Below, in pieces: positions 1 to 12,593 of a DNA stretch of 64,000 nt (position 1 is its first letter; each line of letters opens with the position of its first letter). Where the stretch lies: the sequence record NZ_CP090008.1, one strand, 5' to 3'. The stretch comes from a plasmid. Position numbers and translations under genes: made by a program. The notes under the pieces were generated by a model that made no database searches, was not told the origin of the DNA, and saw nothing but the letters and a program-made list of their open reading frames with translations.

Positions 1-14
1 ACGATTACTCTTTG

Positions 15-92
15 ACCCAAAATCGATAAGGTTGTCTATGCCGTATTATTGTAGCACCTTGTTTCAAACAAATACCAGATGAGGTGTTTTTT
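15..92. repeat. Left copy of ~80 bp direct repeat (second copy 34064..34141, ~85% identical); continues as diverged ~200 bp repeat ending in an IS3-type end remnant
   Basis: cccaaaatcgataaggttgtctatgccgtattattgta... matches 34067-34106 nearly base for base; downstream ACTTGACAAATGGT shared at 199 and 34239. Confidence 0.7.
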
Positions 93-169
93 AGCATGCC
101 CTTTTATGGATCAAAAAGTGTTAAAAATAAGACAGTAACCTCAGAATAGCTACTGTCTTATCTCTTTTT

Positions 170-230
170 TTACTTAAAGCCTTGATAGACTTGACAAATG
201 GTAGAAAAGAGTCGTTTTTCTTTGTGAAAC
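170..230 (-). mobile_element. Solo IS3-family end remnant (encodes OrfB C-terminal ...FSTICQVY on minus strand)
   Basis: Matches 3' end of intact IS3 OrfB at 34236-34262 (…FATICQVY) and third copy at 32945-32975. Confidence 0.5.
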
Positions 231-254
231 ATAGGGAACACCTCACAACTCTTC

Positions 255-290
255 TTATCTCTATTCTTATCTCTATTCTTATCTCTATTA
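255..290. repeat. Tandem repeat 3 x 12 bp (TTATCTCTATTC)
   Basis: Direct reading of sequence. Confidence 0.85.
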
Positions 291-542
291 TACGACTTTA
301 CACAAAGAAAAGCCCTTGGAAACTTTTGTTCCAAGGACTTTGTCTTCAATCTGAGGCCTTGATGATCAATGCTTTTTATATTGCTCAAAAGTCATTCAAC
401 TTTTATAAGCAAATAATATACTCCACTTATTGTGAGAGTGTGCATGAATATTTAAAGGATTAGAATGTGACATATGTGGGACTTGTTTTGAAATTAATAA
501 AATATGATAATTAATACAAGATAACTGAAGGAAGAAAAAATA

Positions 543-773
543 ATGAATGGGATAGGTTATATACTTAGGAGGTTACGGAAAGAAAAAGGGATTACACAGA
601 GAGTTATCTATACAAATCTTTGTAGTCGAAAGCAACTTTCTAGGATAGAAAATAATACATCTTTCCCATCAGTATATCTTTTATATCATATTTGCCAAAG
701 ATTAGAAGTGACAATAGATGAAGTTATCAAATTAACATTAGAAGGAGAAAGTAATGGCAATCAGCACAAGTGA
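543..773 (+). CDS. Small XRE-family helix-turn-helix transcriptional regulator (76 aa), first gene of cluster
   Basis: HTH_XRE signature (LRRLRKEKGITQRV...LSRIENN); overlaps start of next gene. Confidence 0.6.
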   Translation: MNGIGYILRRLRKEKGITQRVIYTNLCSRKQLSRIENNTSFPSVYLLYHICQRLEVTIDEVIKLTLEGESNGNQHK

Positions 774-1800
774 ATTAAAGTATGAATTACCGGTCGAATT
801 AGCTGCTCGACAACCTATAGAACTGACATCGAGTAGAAGGGATGGAACTAGATTAATAGTAGGTTTTAAAAACTCTCAAAAAATCATTGATGATGTTTTT
901 ACAAATTTTACTAACTATATAAATTCAGGAGACTTACTTATTTTAAATAATAGTAAAACAATTTCACCAATTTTTTATGCATATTCCGATAAATATGGAG
1001 AGGTGAAATTTCATATTAAGACTAAGACTGATTTAGGATATGTATCATATATCAGAATTAGAGAAGATTTAAAAGATAAAATTATTGGTGAGAACTTTAT
1101 TGTAACTGATGAAATAGAAGTATCTGTAAATAAACGAACTGAAGGCGATGAATTTTTGTGTAGTTTTAATTGTTCTGAAGAGGATTTGTATAACTATTTA
1201 TTAATTAATGGTGAGGCAGTGAAATCAATTTATACAAAGAAAAAATGGTCAATTGATTATTATCAAAATGAAGTTGCAAATAAATTAGGATCTTTTGAAA
1301 ACCCAGCAGCGAGTCGGCACTTTACTAATAAAATGTTAAATATTTTACGTGAAAAAGGGGTAAGAATCGCGTATATTACTTTAAATTGTGCTTCGGTTGA
1401 TACAAAAATTTTTGAGGATATTATAGAGAAACATGTTGTTTTTAAGGAATACTATGAGATCCCCGAAGAAACAGTAAGATTAATTCAAGAAACAAAATTA
1501 AACGGTAATAAGGTGTTTGCGGTTGGAACTACAGTTATTAGGACTTTAGAAAGCTGTAATTATGATAATTTCAGAATTACTTCCCCTTTAAAAAATTATA
1601 CTGATTTATATATTCATCCTGGACATAATTTTAAAGTAACAGATGCTTTAATTACAAATTTTCATGGATCAATGACTAGTAGACTTGCTCTTTCTGCAGC
1701 TGCAATTGGTGTGGATAATATTATGAATTTATACAAACATGCAATCGAAGAAAAATATTTATTTTATGAGTTTGGGGATGCGAATTTATTATTCATGTAG
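754..1800 (+). CDS. QueA-family protein (S-adenosylmethionine:tRNA ribosyltransferase-isomerase homolog), divergent, in non-tRNA-modification context
   Basis: Alignable along full length to QueA: YELPxELIA, GDLLxxNN, GNKVFAVGTTVIRTLES (cf. VGTTSVRSLES), ALITNFH, EEKYxFxxxGDA. Confidence 0.8.
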   Translation: MAISTSELKYELPVELAARQPIELTSSRRDGTRLIVGFKNSQKIIDDVFTNFTNYINSGDLLILNNSKTISPIFYAYSDKYGEVKFHIKTKTDLGYVSYIRIREDLKDKIIGENFIVTDEIEVSVNKRTEGDEFLCSFNCSEEDLYNYLLINGEAVKSIYTKKKWSIDYYQNEVANKLGSFENPAASRHFTNKMLNILREKGVRIAYITLNCASVDTKIFEDIIEKHVVFKEYYEIPEETVRLIQETKLNGNKVFAVGTTVIRTLESCNYDNFRITSPLKNYTDLYIHPGHNFKVTDALITNFHGSMTSRLALSAAAIGVDNIMNLYKHAIEEKYLFYEFGDANLLFM

Positions 1801-1831
1801 TTTAGTAAATAACTAGAAAGGGGGTGATGAT

Positions 1832-1906
1832 ATGAAGAAGTTGACATTGAAAGAACTGGTTGATAAAAATAATGATTTGCTCTCACGTTGCACAATCAAT
1901 AAATAA
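1832..1906 (+). CDS. Unannotated 24-aa peptide MKKLTLKELVDKNNDLLSRCTINK (candidate precursor/substrate peptide)
   Basis: ATG 8 nt after strong SD (GGGGGTGA); sits between QueA-like and PqqD-like genes; followed by hairpin 1925-1951. Confidence 0.5.
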   Translation: MKKLTLKELVDKNNDLLSRCTINK

Positions 1907-1972
1907 TTAACCACGGAAAAATCCAATGAAGAATGATATTATTTCTTCATTGGAGTTTATTTTGGAGGGCTT

Positions 1973-2239
1973 ATGCTTTATAAAGTTAATCGAGACGTAG
2001 AAATAACAGAAGAAAATGGATATCAAGTTATTCATAGATATTCAGATGATTCGTATTTTTCCTTAGAAAATGATACTTTGTTTATTTTATTGAGTTATAA
2101 TGGTTTAAATAAATTGCAAGATATTGCAAAAAGCTTTGCAAAATATAAAGGAATTTCTAATAACAAAGCTTTAGAATACGTAGAACAAATCCAAAAATAT
2201 TTAGTTTCAGAAGGAATAATTGTCATAGATGAGAACTAA
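1973..2239 (+). CDS. PqqD-like small protein (RiPP recognition element-type peptide chaperone), 88 aa
   Basis: Size and pattern typical of PqqD family (…LNKLQDIAKSF…YVEQIQKYLVSEGIIV); SD GGAGGG upstream. Confidence 0.55.
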   Translation: MLYKVNRDVEITEENGYQVIHRYSDDSYFSLENDTLFILLSYNGLNKLQDIAKSFAKYKGISNNKALEYVEQIQKYLVSEGIIVIDEN

Positions 2240-3095
2240 ATCTAAGTTATTTAATAATATAGCAGAAGATAATATAGACTCCCTTTATGTACAATTGTGT
2301 AATTTAATATATAAAAATGGTAAAGTTGTAATTTCGAGAGGCATGGAGGTAAAAGAATTAATTGGGGTTAACTTAATTTTAACTAATCCCAAAAGACGCT
2401 TTTTAGAAAATGCCAACAGAAAATTAAAACTATACTACGCTATTGGAGAATTCATATGGTATATGAGGGGGAGTAATAGTTTAGAGGAAATTCAGTATTA
2501 TGCCCCTAGCATGTCACAGTTTTCTGATGATGGTTCTATTCTTCAAGGAGCTTATGGACCTAAGATTGTAACTCAAATCGATAAATTGATTACACTGCTA
2601 AGACATGACAAGGGGACTCGTAGGGCAGTTTTACCTATTTATTCTGCGAGTGAATTAGGTAAAGATAGTAAAGATATCCCATGCACACTCACATTAGAGT
2701 TTTTGATTCGAGCTAATAAGCTTCATCTCATTGTCAATATGAGATCAAACGACATATTTTTGGGGCTTCCGTATGATATTTTTTCTTTCACAATGATTCA
2801 GGAATACATTGCAAATAAGATAGGTCTAAATTTAGGATATTATTATCATAATATCGGAAGCTTACATGTCTATAAGAAACATTTTGATAGAATAAAAGAA
2901 ATATCAACTATGAATATACATAAAACATCAGAATTCAATAACTCAAATTTAATCTTTAAAAATTTAAGTGATTTGTTAAACATTGAAAAATCAATTAGAA
3001 ACGGAAGTCCATACAATATGAGCAAGGAATTACTTAATAATTCGGATTTCAATAGAATAAAGATTGAACTAGAGAAATATAAGGATAGTAGGTGA
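2229..3095 (+). CDS. Thymidylate synthase (ThyA)/dNMP hydroxymethylase-family enzyme with catalytic Cys intact
   Basis: IPCTLTLEF…NMRSNDIFLGLPYDIFSFTMIQEYIA…SLHVY aligns to ThyA PCH…[20 protein letters not shown]…HLY. Confidence 0.8.
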   Translation: MRTKSKLFNNIAEDNIDSLYVQLCNLIYKNGKVVISRGMEVKELIGVNLILTNPKRRFLENANRKLKLYYAIGEFIWYMRGSNSLEEIQYYAPSMSQFSDDGSILQGAYGPKIVTQIDKLITLLRHDKGTRRAVLPIYSASELGKDSKDIPCTLTLEFLIRANKLHLIVNMRSNDIFLGLPYDIFSFTMIQEYIANKIGLNLGYYYHNIGSLHVYKKHFDRIKEISTMNIHKTSEFNNSNLIFKNLSDLLNIEKSIRNGSPYNMSKELLNNSDFNRIKIELEKYKDSR

Positions 3096-3098
3096 GAA

Positions 3099-3683
3099 AT
3101 GTCTATCGGAAAACTAATCTATATATGTGGAATTGATGGTTCTGGGAAAACAACATTAGCCAAGAATCTTTCTAATCATTTTGGTGATAAATCAATATTT
3201 TTGCCATTAAATAATTCAAAAAGATTCATTAATGAAATTGATAGTTTCTGTAAAGAGTATAATACAGACAGGTGGAGTATATTTTCAGAATATTTTAGGG
3301 GAAATATTTGGGCGTTAGAGCTAGTTTATTTTTGTGAAAATATTTTAAAACCCGCTCTAAAAAAGTACGAATATGTATTCATCGATAGATATTATATATG
3401 TAATGCTATATATTCTAATTTATTAGTCACTAATAAGTTGGTTAATAGACTGCATGAATTACTGATTAAACCAGACATGGTTTTTTATATCAATATTAAT
3501 CCAGAGATCGCTTTTGAAAGAATTTTAAAAAGGAATGAGCAAAAAACGCCGAAAGAAAGTTTGGACAATTTAAAATTAGCTTCTGATTTATATTCAAGAT
3601 ATCTTGAAGATAAAAGTTATTATGAATTAGACGGAGAGAAGTCAGAGAATCAAATTTTAAAGTCTGTATTACAAATTATTTAG
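3099..3683 (+). CDS. Thymidylate/dNMP kinase-like P-loop kinase
   Basis: Walker A GIDGSGKTT; DRY-type motif FIDRYYICNAIYS as in Tmk. Confidence 0.7.
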   Translation: MSIGKLIYICGIDGSGKTTLAKNLSNHFGDKSIFLPLNNSKRFINEIDSFCKEYNTDRWSIFSEYFRGNIWALELVYFCENILKPALKKYEYVFIDRYYICNAIYSNLLVTNKLVNRLHELLIKPDMVFYININPEIAFERILKRNEQKTPKESLDNLKLASDLYSRYLEDKSYYELDGEKSENQILKSVLQII

Positions 3684-3699
3684 AATTTAGGATTAAGAT

Positions 3700-4689
3700 A
3701 TGAAATTTGAAACAGTACTAGATTTTTATATATACTATTTGGAAATCCTTCTGAAAAGGGAAAAAAATCATACTAAAGTTGTCCCATTTTCGGAGATAGC
3801 TAATAAAGTCGAGGTTTTCAACAATAGTATTGAGATTGTTCAAGGAACTCATAGTAATATGCTATTTAGTAGATCTGAATTTAATTATAATGTAGTGCAT
3901 ATGCTATATTCTTTGAGTGGGAGAACAGATTCATATATATTAAAAAAATATAAAAGTTCATATTGGCGATATTCGAATGAGGGATTTTATGTCAATACAA
4001 TTGGGGAGCGGTTATATACTTTATATGGTAATCAAATTAAACGTTGTGTAAATTTTTTAAAAGAAAATATTTATACGTCAGATGCCGTTTGTTTTATGAA
4101 ATCTTTTGAAAATGAAAATATTGAATGTACTCTAAATCTTCATTTTTATTATAGAGATAATCGATTAAATTTGGAGTTATCATATAAAGGTTCTAGTTTA
4201 TTAGAGTATACTAACTCCGATCTATTTATTTATTCTTCTTTACTTTCATTAATGAGCCATTGGTTAGATGTGGAACCTGGAAGTTTATTTTTAAAATGTC
4301 ACTCGATTTTTATTTCAGAAAATGATCTAGAAAGAGCTAAGAAACTATTAGAAATTGGTAAATCGTTGAGAAATATTGGTATTTCAATGAATCATAGGTT
4401 TTCATCCAGTATTGAAACTTATCGTTCAGAATTTTCTGAAGCTATCAATAGAATAATTGCTTGGGATACTGTTGATATTACTCAGAGAGTTTCTGAGGAA
4501 TTAGAGTATATAAAAAAGTATTTTACTCCATATATTCAAGACTTGTTACTTATTCTTTTAGCGGATAGATTTCATCAAACTGATAGTGATTATAAAATAG
4601 TATTGAGTCAGCTCTCAGATAGGTCAATTGGGAAATTTAAGGAAACAATTGATAAAATACAATTTAATAAATTATTAGAGGTAATTTAA
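3700..4689 (+). CDS. Divergent ThyA-fold paralog (possible hydroxymethylase/methyltransferase or non-catalytic partner)
   Basis: IECTLNLHFYYRDNRLNLELSYKGSSLLEYTNSDLFIYSSLLSL resembles ThyA core (PCH…QRSxDxxLGxPFNIASY) but lacks the R-S-x-D phosphate motif. Confidence 0.4.
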   Translation: MKFETVLDFYIYYLEILLKREKNHTKVVPFSEIANKVEVFNNSIEIVQGTHSNMLFSRSEFNYNVVHMLYSLSGRTDSYILKKYKSSYWRYSNEGFYVNTIGERLYTLYGNQIKRCVNFLKENIYTSDAVCFMKSFENENIECTLNLHFYYRDNRLNLELSYKGSSLLEYTNSDLFIYSSLLSLMSHWLDVEPGSLFLKCHSIFISENDLERAKKLLEIGKSLRNIGISMNHRFSSSIETYRSEFSEAINRIIAWDTVDITQRVSEELEYIKKYFTPYIQDLLLILLADRFHQTDSDYKIVLSQLSDRSIGKFKETIDKIQFNKLLEVI

Positions 4690-4691
4690 AT

Positions 4692-4952
4692 TTGATAATT
4701 AAAAAGAGTCTTGCTGCTATACAACGTTCAGTATCAGGAAATGAATTTTTGTTAAATTTACTTACTGATAGGACTTTTCTCCTTAATGAAGTTTCTCTCT
4801 ATATTTGGAGTAATCTTGGAGAATGTAGTACTGAGGAAATAGCTGCAAATTTATCTAAAATGTATAATGAAAAAACCGAGATAATTCAAAATGATGTAGA
4901 TGAAGTTATTAATATTTTACAGGAAGAAGGGTTAATTGAAATTCTGAATTAA
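4692..4952 (+). CDS. Second PqqD-like small protein (RRE-type), 86 aa
   Basis: FLLNEVSLYIWSNLGECSTEEIAANL…DVDEVINILQEEGLIE is a textbook PqqD-family pattern. Confidence 0.65.
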   Translation: MIIKKSLAAIQRSVSGNEFLLNLLTDRTFLLNEVSLYIWSNLGECSTEEIAANLSKMYNEKTEIIQNDVDEVINILQEEGLIEILN

Positions 4953-4970
4953 GAGAGGTGGAGGATATTA

Positions 4971-5657
4971 ATGGCTGAAATTATTTATAGTATGATTGCT
5001 AATGAGATTTCAGAGCAATTGTCAGAGGATAATATTGTAATTTGGAAATCTGAGATGGATGGACTGGGGACCTCATTATCTGATATCGATGCATATTGTA
5101 TCTGCAAGGAAGAAAAAGTAATAAAAAGCTTTGTATATGAAGGGACACCGGTTGATATTGAATATGTGACTTCGGAAAGGCTAAAAGCTAAAATTAATAA
5201 AATTTATCAATACACTAATCATGGTGATATTTATAAAGGATTAGATGAAGATTTGAAATTATTTTACAGATTACAAAGAGGAGAGAAATCAGCTAAATTT
5301 TCATTGATTGGAGTTGAAGTTCCCACACTTGAGGAAATTTCTAAGATTGCAGCACAATATTATTATGAATTATTTTTAGGTCTGTATGAAGATGCTTATA
5401 AAATGTACCATGGGAAAAATAAATTAGATTCTTTTGTCCTTTCCCTAGAGACATTACAAATGTCTATTGCAACTTATTTAGCTAGGGTAGGGAAACCACA
5501 ATTTAAGAAAAAATGGCTATTTAAATATTTTAATATAGTAGCTAACAATTCCCTATATAAAGATTTAATTACACAATTAGAATCAACACAGGAATATGAT
5601 TTAATGGAATTCACAGAGAGTATACTAGTCAATTCAAAAAAGCTTCTAGAAATTTAG
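4971..5657 (+). CDS. Pol-beta superfamily nucleotidyltransferase (LinB/ANT-like)
   Basis: hG[GS]…DhDh motif: MDGLGTSLSDIDAYCI; helical C-terminal domain. Confidence 0.65.
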   Translation: MAEIIYSMIANEISEQLSEDNIVIWKSEMDGLGTSLSDIDAYCICKEEKVIKSFVYEGTPVDIEYVTSERLKAKINKIYQYTNHGDIYKGLDEDLKLFYRLQRGEKSAKFSLIGVEVPTLEEISKIAAQYYYELFLGLYEDAYKMYHGKNKLDSFVLSLETLQMSIATYLARVGKPQFKKKWLFKYFNIVANNSLYKDLITQLESTQEYDLMEFTESILVNSKKLLEI

Positions 5658-5679
5658 TATATTGAAAGGAGGTGAGATT

Positions 5680-5742
5680 ATGGTCTATAAAAAACCTATT
5701 GTTGAAGATATTAAATTAAGTGCCTCTGCATTACTTGTATAA
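5680..5742 (+). CDS. Unannotated 20-aa peptide MVYKKPIVEDIKLSASALLV (second candidate substrate/precursor peptide)
   Basis: Perfect SD AGGAGGTGA 7 nt upstream of ATG; followed by 12-bp perfect inverted repeat 5764-5775/5820-5831 plus T-run. Confidence 0.45.
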   Translation: MVYKKPIVEDIKLSASALLV

Positions 5743-5763
5743 TATCTTAGTATAAGTCGGAGA

Positions 5764-5831
5764 GTTGAACAGAATAATTATGTAGTTAATATGACTAACA
5801 GGAAGTATTACTACAAAAAATTCTGTTCAAC
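5764..5831 (+). terminator. Stem-loop (12-bp perfect arms GTTGAACAGAAT/ATTCTGTTCAAC) followed by T-rich tract; likely leaky terminator/attenuator after peptide gene
   Basis: Direct reading. Confidence 0.5.
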
Positions 5832-5857
5832 TTTCCATTTTTTATAGAGTAATAAAA

Positions 5858-6664
5858 ATGAGCAAAATTAGGTATATCATAATAAAGATACTATTACATC
5901 AATTTTACGGAATCAAAAATATAAAATTAATAAATTGTGTTAAAAATATGAATAAAGTTTATATTTTTGAAGATATCAACAAAAAGGTCAAAATGGTTTT
6001 AAAAGTAGAATCTGAAAGAAGAATTAATTCGATCAAGTACCAACATATATTTTCCAATTATGGGATATCGCCAAAAATAATTAAAACTAGAACAGGAAGA
6101 CAGTATATAAAGATTTATAGATTGGTAATATTTGTACAAGAGTATGTAACATCTAGTAAAAGAAAGGTCACTTCAACAGAGATTGTGGGATTTTTAAAAT
6201 ATTTTTACGGAAAAATGGATGAAATAAGAGAATATTTACCCGAAGTTTTGACTACTTATCCATTATATAAGCAAGGCGCATTAAGTAAATGGTTTTATGT
6301 AGTCCATGGTGATTTACGTCCACAAAATATTATCATTACCAGGGATAGTTTTAGCGTGATTGATTTTGAGTATTTAAGTCTAGGAATTCGAGAAACTGAA
6401 ATTCTCAAGTTAATTATAATAATTTGTAAATATCAAAGTAATTTGATTGAATCGCTATATTCTAAATTCTTAGAATCAGACGTAATAGAAATGCATATAG
6501 AGGAGGCGATAAGGGTTCTTTTGTATGATCTTCTTAAATCAAATTTTCCTGAAAAGGTCAAGAATAATATTCCAAAGAATTATTTTTTAGAAATAACTTC
6601 TGAAAGGGAGGCATTAATAAACTTTTGCCATACATATTTAAAAAGAAAGGAATCCCAAAAATGA
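5858..6664 (+). CDS. APH/choline-kinase-fold kinase (aminoglycoside phosphotransferase-like); true start may be internal (ATG 5948)
   Basis: Catalytic loop HGDLRPQNIII and IDFEY (DFE/DFG-like) motifs. Confidence 0.65.
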   Translation: MSKIRYIIIKILLHQFYGIKNIKLINCVKNMNKVYIFEDINKKVKMVLKVESERRINSIKYQHIFSNYGISPKIIKTRTGRQYIKIYRLVIFVQEYVTSSKRKVTSTEIVGFLKYFYGKMDEIREYLPEVLTTYPLYKQGALSKWFYVVHGDLRPQNIIITRDSFSVIDFEYLSLGIRETEILKLIIIICKYQSNLIESLYSKFLESDVIEMHIEEAIRVLLYDLLKSNFPEKVKNNIPKNYFLEITSEREALINFCHTYLKRKESQK

Positions 6665-7710
6665 TTTCAACTGAGATTGAGAAAAAATATCTACTTACAA
6701 AAGAAGAATTTCTATCCTTTAGTAGAGATTTTTTTAAAAGTGCAAAAATTCAAGAACAAACTAATTATTATTTTGATAGTTTAGATTTTTCACTATTAAA
6801 GAGAGGAATGACTCTTAGAATTCGAGAAAAATATGATAAATATATTTTAACATTAAAGAAAAAGAAATCAGTCAAAATAATTGTAGAATCGGAAGAAATT
6901 AATTTCGTAATTACACCGCAAGACTTTCAAGAGGCAATCTTAACTGGAGAATTTCCCCAAAATGTAAAGAAAGAACTAGACTCATTAATTCCCGAAAAGA
7001 AAATTTTTTATCTAGGTTTTCTAAAAACTAAAAGATATGTAATCGAAAAAAATTCTTTGATATATTGTTTAGATAAAAATAATTATTTTGGAAAGGAGGA
7101 TTTTGAATTAGAAATTGAAGGAACAGAGAAAGGACTAAAAGAAATTGAAATTGATATTTCCAAGAGCAAATCTAATAATGTTGGAAAATATGCTAGATTT
7201 ATTGATGAATTATTGAAAGGAAACGGTAATTATCTGATTAAAACTCAAGTGTCTGCAATTATTCTTAATAAAAGTAGCGATAAAGTTTGTCTTATTAAGA
7301 AGGATATTCCAACCTCAAGTATACATAATATGTGGCTTCCACCCGGTGGACATATCGATTTTGGAGAAAATTTAATAGATGCTGTCAAAAGAGAGGTCTA
7401 TGAAGAGACAGGGTTAGAAGTTACGGTTTCAAAATTATCTAGCATTGTATCGTTTCATCAAAAAAAGGCAGAGCAAGCTATTTGTTTCTTTTATGTCGCA
7501 GAATCCCAAAATATTAATGAAATAAATGTCACTGAGCCAGGCATTGAATGCAGGTGGTTTAATTTAAAAGATATACTAAGTGGAGATGATATAAATATGA
7601 CATCCTATCATAAGCTTATAATATCCGACTTGCAAGATAACAGGATTTTATATTTGAATTTAAAAAAATCTGATAATCAATATAATATTGAAAATATAGT
7701 TCATATTTAA
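6661..7710 (+). CDS. CYTH (triphosphate tunnel) - Nudix hydrolase fusion protein
   Basis: N-term EIEKKYLL (ExExK CYTH signature); C-term Nudix box GGHIDFGENLIDAVKREVYEETGLEV. Confidence 0.7.
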   Translation: MISTEIEKKYLLTKEEFLSFSRDFFKSAKIQEQTNYYFDSLDFSLLKRGMTLRIREKYDKYILTLKKKKSVKIIVESEEINFVITPQDFQEAILTGEFPQNVKKELDSLIPEKKIFYLGFLKTKRYVIEKNSLIYCLDKNNYFGKEDFELEIEGTEKGLKEIEIDISKSKSNNVGKYARFIDELLKGNGNYLIKTQVSAIILNKSSDKVCLIKKDIPTSSIHNMWLPPGGHIDFGENLIDAVKREVYEETGLEVTVSKLSSIVSFHQKKAEQAICFFYVAESQNINEINVTEPGIECRWFNLKDILSGDDINMTSYHKLIISDLQDNRILYLNLKKSDNQYNIENIVHI

Positions 7711-7894
7711 AAGATTAAAACTAGTTATATATAAAATCTAGGTATAACTGTTCCACTGAATTCCATAGATATAATTAGCTTCTTAAATGTAGGGCTATTT
7801 TATAGCTTGAATATACAATATAAGTGCACAATAAAAACTCATAAGATTTTCTAGTAAAATAGAATTGAACGAACTAGTTACGAAAGGAAATCTT

Positions 7895-8881
7895 ATGAGC
7901 TACCATCATTTTACTATAGATGAACGTGAAAGCATTCTCGTTTACCGTACGCATGACCTAAATTTTTCTCAAATTGCTAAATCACTTCATCGTCATTAGT
8001 CTAGCAGTAGTGGTGAGTGGCAACGACATCTTAAAGAAGGAAGCTATTCTCCAAGTCATGCATAGGAATCTTATCATATGGCTAAATCACACTGTGGGCG
8101 GAAACGTATGCTTGAAATAGATCACAATTTAAGCAATACCGTCAAACATCTATTTCTCGATTACCAATGGTCTCCCGAAGAAATAGAAGGTCGGTTGCGA
8201 TTAGAGTATGGAAAAACTGTTATTAGTTATCAAACAATCTATAGAGCCATTTACAGAGGGCATTTTGATGATAACTCACTATCTCATGGTGCTCGTGGTG
8301 TCATTCGAAAGCTCCGTCATCGTGGTAAAACACGTCATACAAAAGGTTATGTCGAAAATAGAGGGAAAATCTCTATATCTCATACAATTCACGAAAGACT
8401 AGAAGATGCTAATAACCGAACTAGAATAGGAGATTGGGAAGCCGATACTGTTGCAGGTAAAACTAGAAAAGCTTGTTTAGTGACTCTAACTGACCGTTAT
8501 TCTCGTTTTCTAAAAATCCAGAAGGTAGCTGTCAAGAAAAGCAAGTTGGTAATAGAAGCTATGGTAAAAATGTTAGAGCCCTTGACGAAGCATACAATAA
8601 CTCCTGATAGAGGGAAAGAATTCACGTATCATCAGAAATTGAGCGATCAATTGAACATTGAAGTCTATTTTCCTGACCCTCATGCTCCATGGCAACGAGG
8701 AACCAATGAGAACACGAAAGGATTACTTTGAGAGTATTTTCCAAAGGGTAGTGATCTAACATTGGTTGATGATCAGACTATTCAGCTGTGGGAGAACAAA
8801 CTTAATAATAGGCCACGAAAATGTCTTAACTGGAAAACACCTTATGAAGTATTCTATGGGGAAAGTATGCACTTAATTTGA
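7895..8881 (+). pseudogene. IS30-family transposase, inactivated (two in-frame stops near N-terminus, frameshift near C-terminus)
   Basis: MSYHHFTIDERESILVYRTHDLNFSQIAKSLHRH* …; DDE core …GDWEADTV…; C-terminal continues in another frame to 8881. Confidence 0.75.
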
Positions 8882-8953
8882 CAATTCAAGAGTAAAATAA
8901 ATTTAGAAGACATATTTTTATTTGATTTAAGTTATTTGATTTAAGGAGGCGAA

Positions 8954-9745
8954 ATGCTACTAGCTGTAATAAGAAGAAACTGGCAGATGTATAAAAGATA
9001 TTTTCCAGTAACATTGTTTTTTAATAGGGGTTTGGATGCTGGTTTTACTCTATTAGGTTTGTGGTTAATAGCGAATTTTTTATTCGCAAATAACATTAAA
9101 GTTGGTAATGCTATAGAGTACTCAGATTACTTCAGTTATGCTGCAGTAGGATTGGTTTATTATAATGCATCAATTGCTATTCTGATGAATGTAGGGAGAG
9201 CATTAATAACAGAAGTTAGAGAAGGCACTCTTGAAAGTACATTAGTATCTCCTTTTAACATTGTCTATTATTACTTAGGAATCTTTTTAGAGCAGTTTGT
9301 AAGGACCTTTTTGGAATTTCTATTTTCTTATATAATTGCTATTTTGCTCGGTGCAGATTTACAACAAATTACATTACTGATTTTATTGCTTGGCTTCTTA
9401 TATGTTTCGATTTGCTCTTTTTCGATGGGGGTATTCCTATCAAATATAATGTTGTGGTTTAGGGATACATTCATTAGTCAAAATACAATTTTTCTGATAA
9501 TCTTCTTGGTCTCAGGCATTACCTTTCCAATAGAATTATTGCCAAAATTTTTAAGGGTGATTAGTAATTTTATACCGTTAACATATTCTATTAAGGCAAT
9601 AAGAACCTTATATTTGGAAACCCAGACGAGTATGATCAATCTTAGCTTTATACAAGGTTTACTACTTTCAATATTATACTTCTTGATAGGGATTCTGGTA
9701 TATAATAAGGTTGAGAAAAAAATTGTAAGTGATGTTTCATATTAA
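8954..9745 (+). CDS. ABC-2 type transporter permease
   Basis: 6-TM hydrophobic profile, 263 aa, translationally coupled to ATPase. Confidence 0.6.
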   Translation: MLLAVIRRNWQMYKRYFPVTLFFNRGLDAGFTLLGLWLIANFLFANNIKVGNAIEYSDYFSYAAVGLVYYNASIAILMNVGRALITEVREGTLESTLVSPFNIVYYYLGIFLEQFVRTFLEFLFSYIIAILLGADLQQITLLILLLGFLYVSICSFSMGVFLSNIMLWFRDTFISQNTIFLIIFLVSGITFPIELLPKFLRVISNFIPLTYSIKAIRTLYLETQTSMINLSFIQGLLLSILYFLIGILVYNKVEKKIVSDVSY

Positions 9746-10744
9746 GTGAAGGAGAGAAATAAAATGTATGAAGTATTCAATATTTCAAAAGATTATGTAA
9801 CAAAAAAGAGAATAGGATTGTTTAAACATAAAAAAGAAGTTAAAAAAGCTATACAAGATGTAAATTTATCAGTCCCTAGAGGTAAAATTATTGGTGTTTT
9901 AGGAGAAAATGGTGCAGGGAAAACAACTTTAATAAAGATGATGACAACACTTCTATCAAGTGATACTGGAAAAATTTTGATAGATGGAGTTGACATTAAT
10001 CAAAATGTAAAAAATACTCGAAAAAGGATCAACATCATTAGTGGAGGAGAAAAAAATCTCTATTGGAGATTGACTGCAGTTGAAAATTTACTCTATTTTG
10101 CTTCTCTGTACGGTCTTCCAAAGAAAGAGGCATTACCTAAGATAGATAATTTATTGAATGAATTAGGGCTTTGGGAAAGTAAGGATACTCCTGTAGAAAA
10201 ATTTTCAAAGGGAATGAAGCAACGCTTACAAATTGCTAAAGGACTAATCAATGATCCAGAATATTTATTTCTTGATGAACCTACACTAGGTCTAGATGTC
10301 AGTATTGCTTACGAGTTGAGAAAAAAATTAAAAGAGATAGCGGCTAAGCGGAATACAGGAATTTTGTTAACAACTCACTACATGGCTGAAGCAGATGAAT
10401 TATGTGATTATATTTATTTTTTAAAACATGGTAAAGTAATTGTGTCAGGTACCAAAACACAGGTTTTTGAACAATTACAGATGACACCAGAGCTTCATGT
10501 CATCCTTTCAGATAGGGATGATGAAAATTCTTCAAAGCTGGCTCAAGTTAGTCGTTTATTTCCATGTATAATTTTGGAAAAATTTGGTAGTAGTATATTG
10601 TTGAAATTCTCTCTTTCAGAATATAATGTGCAGGATATAATAAAAAGCCTATATAATAATCAAATTGAAATTAAGGAAATAAGATATAATGAGCCTACTC
10701 TTGAAAATGTTATTCTAAATTTAGGAGGAAAGAGCTTAAAATGA
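9746..10744 (+). CDS. ABC transporter ATP-binding protein
   Basis: Walker A GENGAGKTT, signature FSKGMKQRL, Walker B LFLDEPT. Confidence 0.85.
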   Translation: MKERNKMYEVFNISKDYVTKKRIGLFKHKKEVKKAIQDVNLSVPRGKIIGVLGENGAGKTTLIKMMTTLLSSDTGKILIDGVDINQNVKNTRKRINIISGGEKNLYWRLTAVENLLYFASLYGLPKKEALPKIDNLLNELGLWESKDTPVEKFSKGMKQRLQIAKGLINDPEYLFLDEPTLGLDVSIAYELRKKLKEIAAKRNTGILLTTHYMAEADELCDYIYFLKHGKVIVSGTKTQVFEQLQMTPELHVILSDRDDENSSKLAQVSRLFPCIILEKFGSSILLKFSLSEYNVQDIIKSLYNNQIEIKEIRYNEPTLENVILNLGGKSLK

Positions 10745-11535
10745 ATTCGATAATAGTTAGTACTTTTAAGAGTGAATTTAGAAGAACATTTTTAAATGAC
10801 AGTATTAATAAATTTTATTTTTTTTCAATGATACTTTGGCCAATTATTTCTCTAATTCAAATTTTTTACAATATGCAAGCCTTTCCAATTACGGATATAC
10901 AAATAGCATCTCTAAGATATGAAGACCAATTAATTTATTTTATATTTATTGGTTATTGTGTTTACATCATTTTTTCAAATGCTGTTCAGAGTGCATGGAG
11001 GCTTGGTGGAGAACGATATCAAGGAACTCTTAGTCAAATTTTTATTGCTCCAATTAAAAAAAATCTATGGCTTTATGCACGTACCTTATCACTTATTTTA
11101 AGTAATTCATGGTTTTTTATCACTATTTTTATTATTGGAAATTTTGTCTATTCTGATGCTTATGAATATATTCTTGCGTCCACTTTTATTTTAGTTGTTG
11201 CATCCTGGATTTGGGCAAGTTTCTTAGGTAGTATTTGTATCAGTTTGAGAGATGCAACGGTAGTTTATGTATTATTGGAGAGCTCTCAAAATACTTTTAG
11301 TGGTGCTAAAGTTCCATTATCAAAATCACCTCGATTAATAAAAGTTATAGGGAGTTTATTTCCCATTAGCTACACAATTATTTATCTAAGAGATATACTT
11401 CTTTATAAAGAGATTATAAGTATAAGTGCTATTTGGTGCTTATGCATAAATATCTTTGTTATTTTATTAACGAAGATAGTGTTAGAAGTTGGAGAAAGAC
11501 ACATGAAAAAAGTGGGCAGTTTTGATTTATTTTGA
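10741..11535 (+). CDS. ABC-2 type transporter permease (second)
   Basis: Multi-TM, overlaps ATPase stop (ATGA). Confidence 0.6.
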   Translation: MNSIIVSTFKSEFRRTFLNDSINKFYFFSMILWPIISLIQIFYNMQAFPITDIQIASLRYEDQLIYFIFIGYCVYIIFSNAVQSAWRLGGERYQGTLSQIFIAPIKKNLWLYARTLSLILSNSWFFITIFIIGNFVYSDAYEYILASTFILVVASWIWASFLGSICISLRDATVVYVLLESSQNTFSGAKVPLSKSPRLIKVIGSLFPISYTIIYLRDILLYKEIISISAIWCLCINIFVILLTKIVLEVGERHMKKVGSFDLF

Positions 11536-11766
11536 ATCGTGCTTAACTAGCTATTTAAATTTAGAGTAATTATTTCATTTAATTTATATTTTATCAATAA
11601 TAAAGGGGTAGTACTAAGGAAAAATTATATAGAGAGTTAGCTGAATCCTCTTCGAAACTCAGTGAAAAATAGTTCAATTATTGTTTCGTCAGATCAACAC
11701 GATTTAATCATTTGATACAATGCTCATATCTTTCAATACTCAATTGTTTTTACAACTTTTGGATGT

Positions 11767-11976
11767 TTAATTTATACAGTCTACGATTTCTACCATATTT
11801 TCAACCTTGCAATCAAGTGCAATACATATTTTCAATAAAATATCAGTAGTGATATTTTCCCCTTTTCCTAATTTTGCTAGAGAAGAGGAGCTAATCCCTA
11901 CTTCTTGCCGGAGCTTTGTTTTGATTCAACCTTTATCAATGAGAAGTTTCCATAATTTATTATAACTAAACTTCAT
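11767..11976 (-). pseudogene. XRE-family HTH regulator with internal stop (MKFSYNKLWKLLIDKG*IKTKLRQEVGISSSSLAKLGKGENITTDILLKICIALDC…)
   Basis: Manual translation of minus strand. Confidence 0.6.
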
Positions 11977-12593
11977 CTGAGTTTTTTCCTTTGTTCCATG
12001 AAATACCGTAGAGTTCATTTCCGTTACTAGAGAGTCTCAGTACAGTATTTTCTGACAAGAGATGATTAGCTTCTGGATAATACGAGATAGCTTTATCAAA
12101 GGATAAAAAGACTTGTTTGTTCAATGATTTTGATTGGTCATATAGCTTCAACAGGGCTTCGGTTGCTTGGTAACTAATATTACTTAAGAGTAATGAATCA
12201 TGGGCAAGTGCTGGAAGATTAGTTAGATAGAGTATTGCTAAATCGTACAATATCATTCCTTTGAACTTAGTTCCTGTACCGTCGTCGTCAGGGGTATAGA
12301 AGGAATAGCTATTATAGGTTCTGAGGATAATTTGAGGAGCTTTGCGAATATCTGGATAAAGGAAATCATTGAATTCTCGCATTTTAGCATTGATTTTTCC
12401 TTCTAGCTCTATTAGAATGTGATCCAACGCTACTGTATTTTCAAAACTAATATATTCTGTTGGGTTTTCAATCCCATAAACAGATTGCAGTAGGTCTAGC
12501 CAAAAAGACTGGCTCTCTTGTCTTTCTCTACCACGGTTTTCCCAACGCTTAATAAAAGCCTTGGCTTGTTTTTTTCTGTTCTCTAGTGTTCAT
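11966..12593 (-). pseudogene. N-terminal fragment (frameshifted, truncated ~200 aa) of MmeI/PglX-like type IIG RM / BREX-type DNA methyltransferase
   Basis: …AFIKRWENRGRERQESQSFWLDLLQSVYGI…FENTVALDHILIELEGKI is the conserved N-terminus (PD-ExK region) of this family; stop after 16 codons then frame change; no MTase domain follows. Confidence 0.55.

Follow-up and report, generated by a model that had tools for sequence, protein, structure and literature searches.

The window analysed here is a 64,000-nucleotide stretch of plasmid DNA (sequence record NZ_CP090008.1) in which a 24-codon open reading frame (ORF), named pepA, occupies positions 1832..1906 of the + strand. This ORF is probably a translated gene for a precursor, or at least a substrate, peptide of the type found in pathways to peptides that are made on the ribosome and modified after translation (RiPPs). 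It lies between a gene for a QueA-like S-adenosylmethionine (SAM) enzyme and a gene, RRE1, for a predicted RiPP recognition element (RRE), and it has counterparts in the same company in clusters whose DNA is unrelated. A first-pass annotation had read the ORF as a RiPP precursor gene, and that reading is supported by its conservation and synteny, by the predicted fold of RRE1 and by a hairpin on the 3' side of the ORF. The neighbourhood then recognized is extended by the QueA-like gene upstream, as a conserved enzymatic partner, and by a second peptide gene, pepB. Together with pepB it belongs to a family of clusters that is widespread but unannotated, and whose enzyme set is, as far as could be found, undescribed for RiPPs. 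Because the cluster combines peptide-binding RRE proteins with enzymes for cytosine nucleotides and a SAM enzyme of the queuosine type, its product is probably a modified peptide of a hitherto undescribed kind.

The ORF starts with ATG at 1832, stops with TAA at 1904-1906 and encodes MKKLTLKELVDKNNDLLSRCTINK. It is preceded by a strong Shine–Dalgarno (SD) sequence, GGGGGTGA, at 1820..1827 on the + strand, and the region leading into the start reads GAAAGGGGGTGATGAT-ATG. The first-pass annotation was right about the 24-residue ORF and the strength of its SD, and is corrected on their spacing: the ATG had been placed 8 nt past the SD, and is in fact 4 nt past the end of the 8-nt motif, or 7 nt past its GGGGG run. 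A 24-codon ORF does not by itself rise above chance, dozens of ORFs of 20-45 codons being present in this AT-rich window. It is the conservation of pepA that sets it above chance, and the restriction of its SD adds support, since GGRGGTGA occurs at two sites only in the 64 kb, each 4 nt 5' of an ATG, one belonging to pepA and the other to pepB. The peptide appears to divide roughly into a leader of residues 1-17 and a core, SRCTINK, containing a conserved Cys20. Neither pepA nor pepB is called in the gene list of NCBI record CP066093.1.

Divergent copies of the cluster within Streptococcus were located through the 228-aa nucleotidyltransferase-like protein encoded downstream, and a contig scan with the same protein returned S. 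mitis-type loci only. In one copy, L012, the enzymes are 60-98% identical to those of the window, and pepA carries two synonymous changes that leave the peptide identical. In the S. mitis-type clusters (L015 and L017-L020), where the enzymes are 43-76% identical to those of the window, the peptide is MKKLTLKELVNKASDLLACCNATK, with length, start and stop unchanged. Compared with the gene of the S. mitis-type cluster (enzymes 58-76% identical), the window gene differs at 20 nucleotides. Five of these fall within codons 1-10 and every one is synonymous (randomisation P ~3e-4), leaving residues 1-10 invariant and the C-terminal 14 variable within the genus. Taken over its full length the ORF acquires no stop and no more than 8 altered amino acids (P = 0.002). 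The gene is kept intact in all five complete Streptococcus-type lineages and genomes. A candidate for a disrupted copy, L011, was rejected: it differs from L015 solely by two single-A homopolymer insertions, in an assembly ridden with frameshifts, in which queA is also split into four pieces, and the break in frame was treated as a sequencing error. These comparisons indicate that the amino-acid sequence of pepA is under purifying selection.

The QueA-like protein is the best conserved of the cluster and served as the search handle for distant clusters. RRE1 could not be used to reach them, because a word-based search found four homologues and an exhaustive HMMER search of 1.84 billion representatives five. 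The QueA-like paralogues linked to an RRE are 38-45% identical to the window protein; the remaining QueA matches lie at or below ~37%, and other QueA copies in the plasmid collection at ~30%. A PqqD gene lies directly downstream of every QueA-like paralogue whose context was retrieved, and the set is often carried on mobile elements. A metagenome scan with a narrower RRE alignment returned a single locus. At least nine lineages, from Streptococcus, a Geobacillus plasmid, Brevibacillus and metagenomes, have a small ORF with a strong SD in company with these two genes, either in the slot of pepA or just 3' of the RRE, and no DNA similarity is detectable between them. That the small ORF should go together with the PqqD-like gene in homologous loci had been proposed earlier as a check on the reading, and it held both in Streptococcus and in distant clusters. 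All positional homologues of pepA have a leader-like N-terminus and a Cys-containing core, and most of those outside Streptococcus carry an N-terminal motif of the YxxPxL type. YxxPxL is the element bound by PqqD-like RREs in the leaders of lasso peptides, and it resembles the N-terminus of PqqA.

The distant clusters are of two types. Those of type 1 (L021; L022/L023; L024/L025, on the Geobacillus thermodenitrificans plasmid pGeo12a; and L026, from Brevibacillus panacihumi) are full clusters with orthologues of all the window enzymes, nine types at 27-49% identity by BLASTP, and the retention of all nine argues for a functional operon, not a chance neighbourhood. Their small ORF lies between the QueA-like and PqqD genes behind an SD of the GGAGGTGA type common to the pepA homologues, that of L022 being GGGAGGTGA. 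The encoded peptides are MDKRNTFTEIIEKNDKKELAGLVFSSCGSK in L021, MERYANTGESFVMYLKTEVDRPEMNDCNVILCV in L022, MVYTTPKLLIVGNLEEMSLFIQSSEGVFSKCRSDMAFAKCRADLAFSKCRG in L024 and MKQYECPELLLVGDLEEMVSYLNEFSTFNKCRTDFNKCRTDLTFSKCRA in L026. The two homologues from Bacillales (L024, 11059-11214; L026, 11057-11206) consist of one leader followed by three tandem cores, F[SAN]KCR[SAGT], an arrangement that resembles multi-core RiPP precursors. A further locus, L027 from B. cereus, has the QueA-like gene followed by PqqD; no small ORF was seen there, but the contig ends 1.2 kb later and the locus was therefore set aside as uninformative.

Type 2 clusters (L028, 10001-11480; L029, 2785-9671; L031, 5635-14436; L032, 5739-14197) encode, in order, a TldD/PmbA-like protease, the QueA-like protein, PqqD, the peptide, a GT4 glycosyltransferase, a PIG-L deacetylase, an ABC transporter and a radical SAM protein. 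They are without ThyA or kinase genes and have in common with the window the triad of QueA-like enzyme, RRE and peptide only. Here the small ORF lies 3' of the RRE and has the core LAL[SA]CCHK; the peptides read MKKYTKPELKKISMLSKLHGLALSCCHKDIR, MKKYTKPQIKKISMLSNLQGLALSCCHKTV and ...MKYSKPVLVKVDLITDLEGLALACCHKTVE. The N-terminus of type 2 peptides, MKKYTKPEL, compares with MKKLTLKEL in streptococcal pepA, and the core GLALACC with DLLACC in the S. mitis type and DLLSRC in the window. Since the peptides match at both ends, the conserved unit is taken to be a QueA-like enzyme, an RRE and a peptide with a Cys core, the cores across the family being DLLSRC, DLLACC, GLAL[SA]CCHK, FSSCGSK and the three F[SAN]KCR repeats. 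The L028 cluster adjoins conjugation genes (TraC/TraG-like) and that of L031 a LanM-like gene.

The 88-aa RRE1 protein (1973..2239, + strand) is a divergent PqqD-fold, predicted peptide-binding protein that is named "PqqD family protein" in UniRef. Its AlphaFold model (pLDDT 82) has three helices, with four strands on the N-terminal side and one short strand at the C-terminus, and the top Foldseek matches in the PDB are the leader-bound lasso RREs 6jx3_B and TbiB1, with a TM-score of 0.84, followed by PqqD and then by the RRE domains of ThcOx, MccB and CteB. The identification of RRE1 as a PqqD-like RRE, which the first-pass annotation had placed 3' of the ORF, thus holds at the level of the predicted fold. 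A second RRE gene, RRE2 (4692..4952, + strand), belongs to the canonical PqqD family (PF05402 at 2e-11, with weak matches to lasso PqqD chaperones). The QueA-like protein (754..1800, + strand) is a paralogue of the SAM ribosyltransferase-isomerase (PF02547 at 1e-73; best PDB matches the QueA structures 1vky and 1yy3), and its scores of 225 and 215 bits fall short of the 324 and 267 bits that NCBIfam requires for QueA equivalogs. The genomic association suggests that it is an RRE-dependent modifier of pepA. It is favoured over the ThyA-like proteins as the primary partner because type 2 clusters keep the triad without the nucleotide enzymes.

Between pepA and RRE1 lies a hairpin at 1922..1954 on the + strand, with a 12-bp stem (1922-1933/1943-1954) and a 9-nt loop. 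The stem can be extended by pairing of an A-tract with a U-tract (1914-1921/1956-1964), and the outermost predicted pairs touch the SD of RRE1 (GGAGGG, 1964-1969); the pepA stop is 15 nt 5' of the core stem, within the extended pairing. The tail, GUUUAUUUU, is U-rich at 1955-1963 and leads into that SD. Its minimum free energy of -19.8 kcal/mol (z = -3.9) was not reached by any of 200 shuffled sequences. The S. mitis type forms a 19-bp stem of -23.1 kcal/mol (z = -5.5). The 14 shared pairs are fully paired in all three sequence types, and the two positions that vary do so in a compensatory manner (G-C to A-U and C-G to U-A), the shuffle control for such changes being weak with three sequences (54/500). 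Hairpins of unrelated sequence are found in the spacer between pepA and RRE in L021, L022, L024 and L026 (z -2.5 to -3.7), with U-tracts in some only, so that every lineage with a small ORF between the QueA-like and RRE genes has a hairpin 3' of it. These comparisons identify the hairpin as a conserved RNA structure. By analogy with precursor-proximal hairpins of bacteriocin operons, it may act as a leaky terminator, a 3' stabiliser or a processing site. The hairpin had been reported earlier at 1925-1951 as an attenuator; it is real and slightly larger, and of the attenuator role what stands is a conserved hairpin with a weak U-tract.

The second candidate precursor gene, pepB (5680..5742, + strand), encodes MVYKKPIVEDIKLSASALLV, with a leader motif of the YxxPxL type and a hydrophobic C-terminus. 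Its SD, GGAGGTGA, lies at 5668-5675 (+ strand). It is followed by a strong, terminator-like hairpin at 5759..5845 (+ strand) with a 17-bp outer stem (5759-5775/5820-5836) and then AUUUUUUAU; this structure (-36 kcal/mol, z = -6.3, U6 tail) is conserved in L012. The gene is conserved in all homologous clusters, and its place is always 3' of the genes for the 228-aa protein and the second PqqD. In Streptococcus the variants have SSVLI, SSVLV or STILR at the C-terminus. Among its homologues are MAYKKPIVKDIKLSASTILR, MKKYKKPSIKVLRINAACLVT and MKKYEKPQVIVIKMPTAIVEI, the distant ones including the latter two and MKEYKKPKLILVKKINDIKYEKPLLKQTKMPVATMLI. In the Brevibacillus panacihumi cluster a third mini-peptide, MYKAPKLKSVKLLAGMENA, with the SD GGAGGTGA, lies directly 5' of a third PqqD (L026, 20790-21038), and the module of a small YxxPxL peptide and a PqqD appears to be iterated.

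The remaining genes of the operon run in the same direction, on the + strand. The first, at 543..773, encodes an XRE-type helix-turn-helix (HTH) regulator (Pfam HTH_19/HTH_3) and overlaps the QueA-like gene; the protein is a bare HTH of 76 residues, and in L012 and L021, too, the QueA-like gene has an HTH gene (75-76 residues) in front of it. Downstream of RRE1, the ThyA-superfamily protein encoded at 2229..3095 (+ strand), ThyA-like 1, resembles the cytidine monophosphate (CMP) 5-hydroxymethylase MilA, its best PDB match (5b6d, 4e-37, against ~1e-19 for thymidylate synthases), and keeps the catalytic Cys motif, which would point to 5-hydroxymethyl-cytosine nucleotides. It is followed by a dTMP-kinase-like nucleoside-monophosphate kinase (3099..3683, + strand; PF02223 at 2e-22, just under the TIGR00041 cut-off) and by a highly divergent second ThyA-like protein, ThyA-like 2 (3700..4689, + strand), assigned from a weak PF00303 match (2e-5) and BLASTP orthology. 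Of the four full clusters of type 1, three (L021, L024 and L026) have as its orthologue a 333-aa ThyA-like gene directly 3' of the RRE, and that of L022 has 303 residues; from this orthology and position it follows that a ThyA-like protein always adjoins an RRE.

After RRE2 comes the 228-aa protein (4971..5657, + strand), assigned to Pol-beta/ANT(4')-like nucleotidyltransferases from an AlphaFold2 model (pLDDT 72) and Foldseek. The model has two domains and matches kanamycin nucleotidyltransferase and 3c18 at modest TM-scores of 0.42-0.45. The protein itself has no match in Pfam, NCBIfam or PDB sequence searches, and its orthologues give weak Polbeta/NTP_transf_2 matches. Beyond pepB lie an APH/choline-kinase-like small-molecule kinase (5858..6664, + strand; PF01636), with orthologues in all full clusters, and a CYTH-NUDIX fusion of a triphosphate tunnel enzyme with a nucleotide pyrophosphohydrolase (6625..7710, + strand; PF01928 and PF00293), whose two parts are separate genes in distant clusters. 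An ABC-2 type exporter of permease, ATPase and permease (8954..11535, + strand) was identified from the Pfam annotation of identical genes in L001-L010. Between the CYTH-NUDIX and ABC-2 genes the window carries an IS30-family transposase broken into at least two ORFs (7865-8880; HTH_38/rve in the L001 annotation), an insertion that L012 is without. A PADLOC search gave generic P-loop and NUDIX similarities only, supporting no known defence system.

Several observations concern the surroundings. Upstream of the operon is a perfect 12-bp tandem repeat, TTCTTATCTCTA, in 3.2 copies (252-289), flanked by terminator-like hairpins at 123-165 and 309-341. Downstream, a 153-aa ORF on the - strand (11966-12427) corresponds to the start of a DUF2326 protein and looks truncated; in L012 the DUF2326 protein has 552 residues, and with the MC7 and CTD11 genes that come after it forms a trio like those of conflict systems. 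Genes of the dCMP/cytidine-deaminase family stand at the edge of two related clusters (L012, 15692-15922; L026, 6788-7294); they are consistent with cytosine-nucleotide chemistry, and lie outside the conserved core.

The features of an RRE-dependent RiPP locus can accordingly be listed for this cluster: an ORF led by an SD within the operon, coding conservation together with the modifying genes, a division into leader and core, and a PqqD-like RRE. Of the usual peptidase and exporter, the ABC-2 exporter is present, and protease genes (CPBP or TldD/PmbA-like) occur in relatives but not in the S. salivarius cluster. A working model can be proposed in which the N-terminal part of pepA, MKKLTLKELVDKNNDLL, would be the leader bound by RRE1, which would present the core SRCTINK to the QueA-like SAM enzyme for a reaction on or near the conserved Cys20; RRE1 may also present pepA to the ThyA-like enzymes. 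RRE2 would deliver pepB to the ANT-like nucleotidyltransferase, while the MilA-like hydroxymethylase, the nucleoside-monophosphate kinase and the APH-like kinase would build a modified cytosine nucleotide donor. The CYTH-NUDIX protein and ABC-2 system would serve trimming, immunity or export, the latter exporting the product or protecting the producer. The pepA hairpin, most likely a leaky terminator or 3'-end stabiliser, would leave more precursor message than enzyme message. We tentatively extend this to a new RiPP class, a possible but speculative outcome, in which a hypermodified cytosine nucleotide would be linked to two ribosomal peptides or would decorate them. QueA-type SAM ribosyl-transfer/isomerisation would act on a peptide nucleophile, the conserved pepA Cys, in place of tRNA-bound preQ1, and the divergent ThyA-like or the ANT-like enzyme would attach 5-hydroxymethyl-cytidylate, giving a peptide-nucleotide hybrid of an abundant human commensal.

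By comparison with known systems, the cluster has the architecture of an RRE-dependent RiPP pathway, but it is not a lasso, pyrroloquinoline quinone or microcin C pathway. As with the lasso B1 protein and its leader, or PqqA and PqqD, a short ribosomal peptide lies beside a stand-alone PqqD-fold protein of ~90 residues, and the YxxPxL-type motif of lasso leaders is present in pepB and in most non-streptococcal relatives of pepA. Unlike known RRE-dependent RiPPs, however, the Streptococcus salivarius cluster is without a lasso cyclase, B2 protease, radical SAM PqqE, YcaO, LanM or any other enzyme known to define a class. Pfam and NCBIfam searches with the ten cluster proteins gave no match to an Asn-synthetase-like lasso cyclase (C) or a transglutaminase-like B2, so that it is not a lasso cluster. 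It differs from the pyrroloquinoline quinone pathway in having no PqqB/C or radical SAM PqqE, and neither peptide has an E-x3-Y core. The QueA-like protein matches QueA (tRNA preQ1(34) S-adenosylmethionine ribosyltransferase-isomerase) over its full length and in the structures it retrieves, but unlike housekeeping QueA it falls under the equivalog cut-offs and is encoded beside a PqqD gene and a small Cys peptide; its context suggests that its substrate is a peptide, not tRNA.

On the nucleotide side, the protein encoded at 2229-3095 resembles the CMP 5-hydroxymethylases MilA and BcmA of the mildiomycin and bacimethrin pathways, including their catalytic Cys motif, whereas the products of those pathways are free nucleobases or nucleosides, and their clusters are without RREs and precursor peptides. 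Microcin C offers the combination of a short ribosomal peptide, nucleotide-handling enzymes and an exporter, and MccB has an RRE-like domain (a weaker fold match to RRE1); this analogy makes a peptide-nucleotide conjugate a plausible product. Unlike microcin C, the cluster has no ThiF/MccB-like adenylyltransferase by Pfam or NCBIfam, its transferase is of the Pol-beta/ANT type, and its peptides end in Lys (pepA) and Val (pepB), not Asn. The pepA hairpin is like those of lantibiotic and bacteriocin operons in lying directly 3' of the precursor and 5' of biosynthetic genes, with structure kept and sequence not; it differs in its weak, A/U-rich stem and interrupted U-tract, and pepA is not the first gene of its operon. 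No curated family describes the cluster. In the literature searched, from which most subscription journals were outside coverage, neither the cluster, nor QueA-like enzymes in RiPP pathways, nor the peptide sequences were described, and QueA-like, ThyA-like or ANT-like partners were not found for RiPPs.

Several results weigh against pepA as a RiPP-type precursor. Only two pepA sequence types occur in Streptococcus, and the within-genus statistics rest on few independent changes. The streptococcal peptide is without the Tyr and Pro of the YxxPxL motif, and the S. salivarius cluster has no leader peptidase. RRE1 had no match in Pfam, NCBIfam or PDB sequence searches, and its alignment to RRE2 by hhalign is collinear and weak (probability 15%, E = 0.0018). 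The pepA hairpin was not called by a generic terminator scan, which missed it because its stem has too few G-C pairs, three only; its U-tract is also interrupted. The IS30-family element may, through polar disruption, have impaired the copy of the cluster in the window. Finally, an antisense frame over pepA (1813-1926, - strand; 37 aa) is open in the S. salivarius type and in the S. mitis type alike; it is not preceded by an SD, differs at 9 amino acids over 24 aligned codons, and is judged to be a by-product of AT-rich coding sequence.

Among the other explanations, the one that survives best, while still unlikely, is that pepA and pepB are scaffolds of the pearlin (PEARL-like) kind, on whose residues the chemistry is carried out before a small nucleoside- or nucleobase-amino-acid conjugate is cleaved off and the peptide recycled. 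Small-molecule nucleotide enzymes dominate the cluster (MilA-like, nucleoside-monophosphate kinase, APH-like, CYTH and NUDIX), the peptides are very short (20-24 residues) with variable ends of 4-7 residues, relatives have TldD/PmbA-like or CPBP proteases, and the three identical short core repeats of the Bacillales precursors would suit repeated release of a unit. Yet the cluster has no aminoacyl-tRNA-dependent ligase or other known scaffold-extending enzyme, and in S. salivarius it has no protease. A peptide product would be just as compatible with the ABC-2 exporters and the pairs of RREs, and sequence alone does not separate the two readings.

The pepA stop falls within the extended pairing, 15 nt short of the core stem, the outermost predicted pairs touch the RRE1 SD, and a hairpin recurs 3' of the small ORF across lineages. 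These features would suit a cis-acting upstream regulatory ORF whose translation, and not its peptide, controls the hairpin, and hence read-through or RRE1 translation, by attenuation. Such a role is very unlikely, given the purifying selection on the amino acids, with five of five leader changes synonymous, and the RRE-binding-type motifs and Cys core common to clusters with unrelated DNA. No alternative antiterminator pairing was seen, Rfam gave no leader or riboswitch over positions 1-12000 at a permissive E-value and no family for the hairpin, and in type 2 clusters the peptide gene lies 3' of the RRE, where attenuation of this kind would have no target.

It is harder still to regard pepA, pepB or both as secreted pheromones of the streptococcal short-hydrophobic-peptide type, sensed by the XRE regulator (543-773) in an autoinducing operon. 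Small peptides with strong SDs, an HTH regulator at the head of the operon and the hydrophobic pepB C-terminus would suit such a circuit, but the 76-aa regulator has no peptide-binding (Rgg/TPR-like) domain, both peptides have a PqqD-fold RRE as partner, which is a feature of enzymatic modification pathways, and the triad occurs in Bacillales and metagenomic clusters without the XRE regulator. That pepA is merely a frame left open by chance between genes in AT-rich DNA, with only the hairpin or the DNA conserved, is scarcely credible, for although the window holds many ORFs of this size by chance and one antisense frame is open too, conservation covers the frame, its length and start, the SD and the leader residues, leader changes are synonymous only, and positional homologues recur in the nine or more lineages without DNA similarity.

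Standard pipelines miss both precursor genes and label the key enzyme "QueA", and with the precursors uncalled and the enzyme so named the cluster is invisible to RiPP mining tools, leaving a gap in annotation. Were pepA the substrate of the QueA-like enzyme, this would be, as far as could be found, the first queuosine-type SAM ribosyl-transfer recruited to peptide modification and the first RiPP pathway built on thymidylate-synthase-family and nucleotide-kinase enzymes. The triad of QueA-like enzyme, RRE and Cys peptide is a directly testable system in vitro. The assembly collection has the exact RRE1 protein indexed in 1806 blocks, and it is on more than 900 contigs, the majority from human-associated S. 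salivarius; identical 88-aa and QueA-like proteins are named S. salivarius in NCBI and UniRef, and the locus is present in CP066093.1. Because the cluster is common, and has relatives both in metagenomes and, in Bacillales, on conjugative elements and plasmids, its product would, if active as an antibiotic or a signal, be relevant to the ecology of the microbes of mouth and gut.

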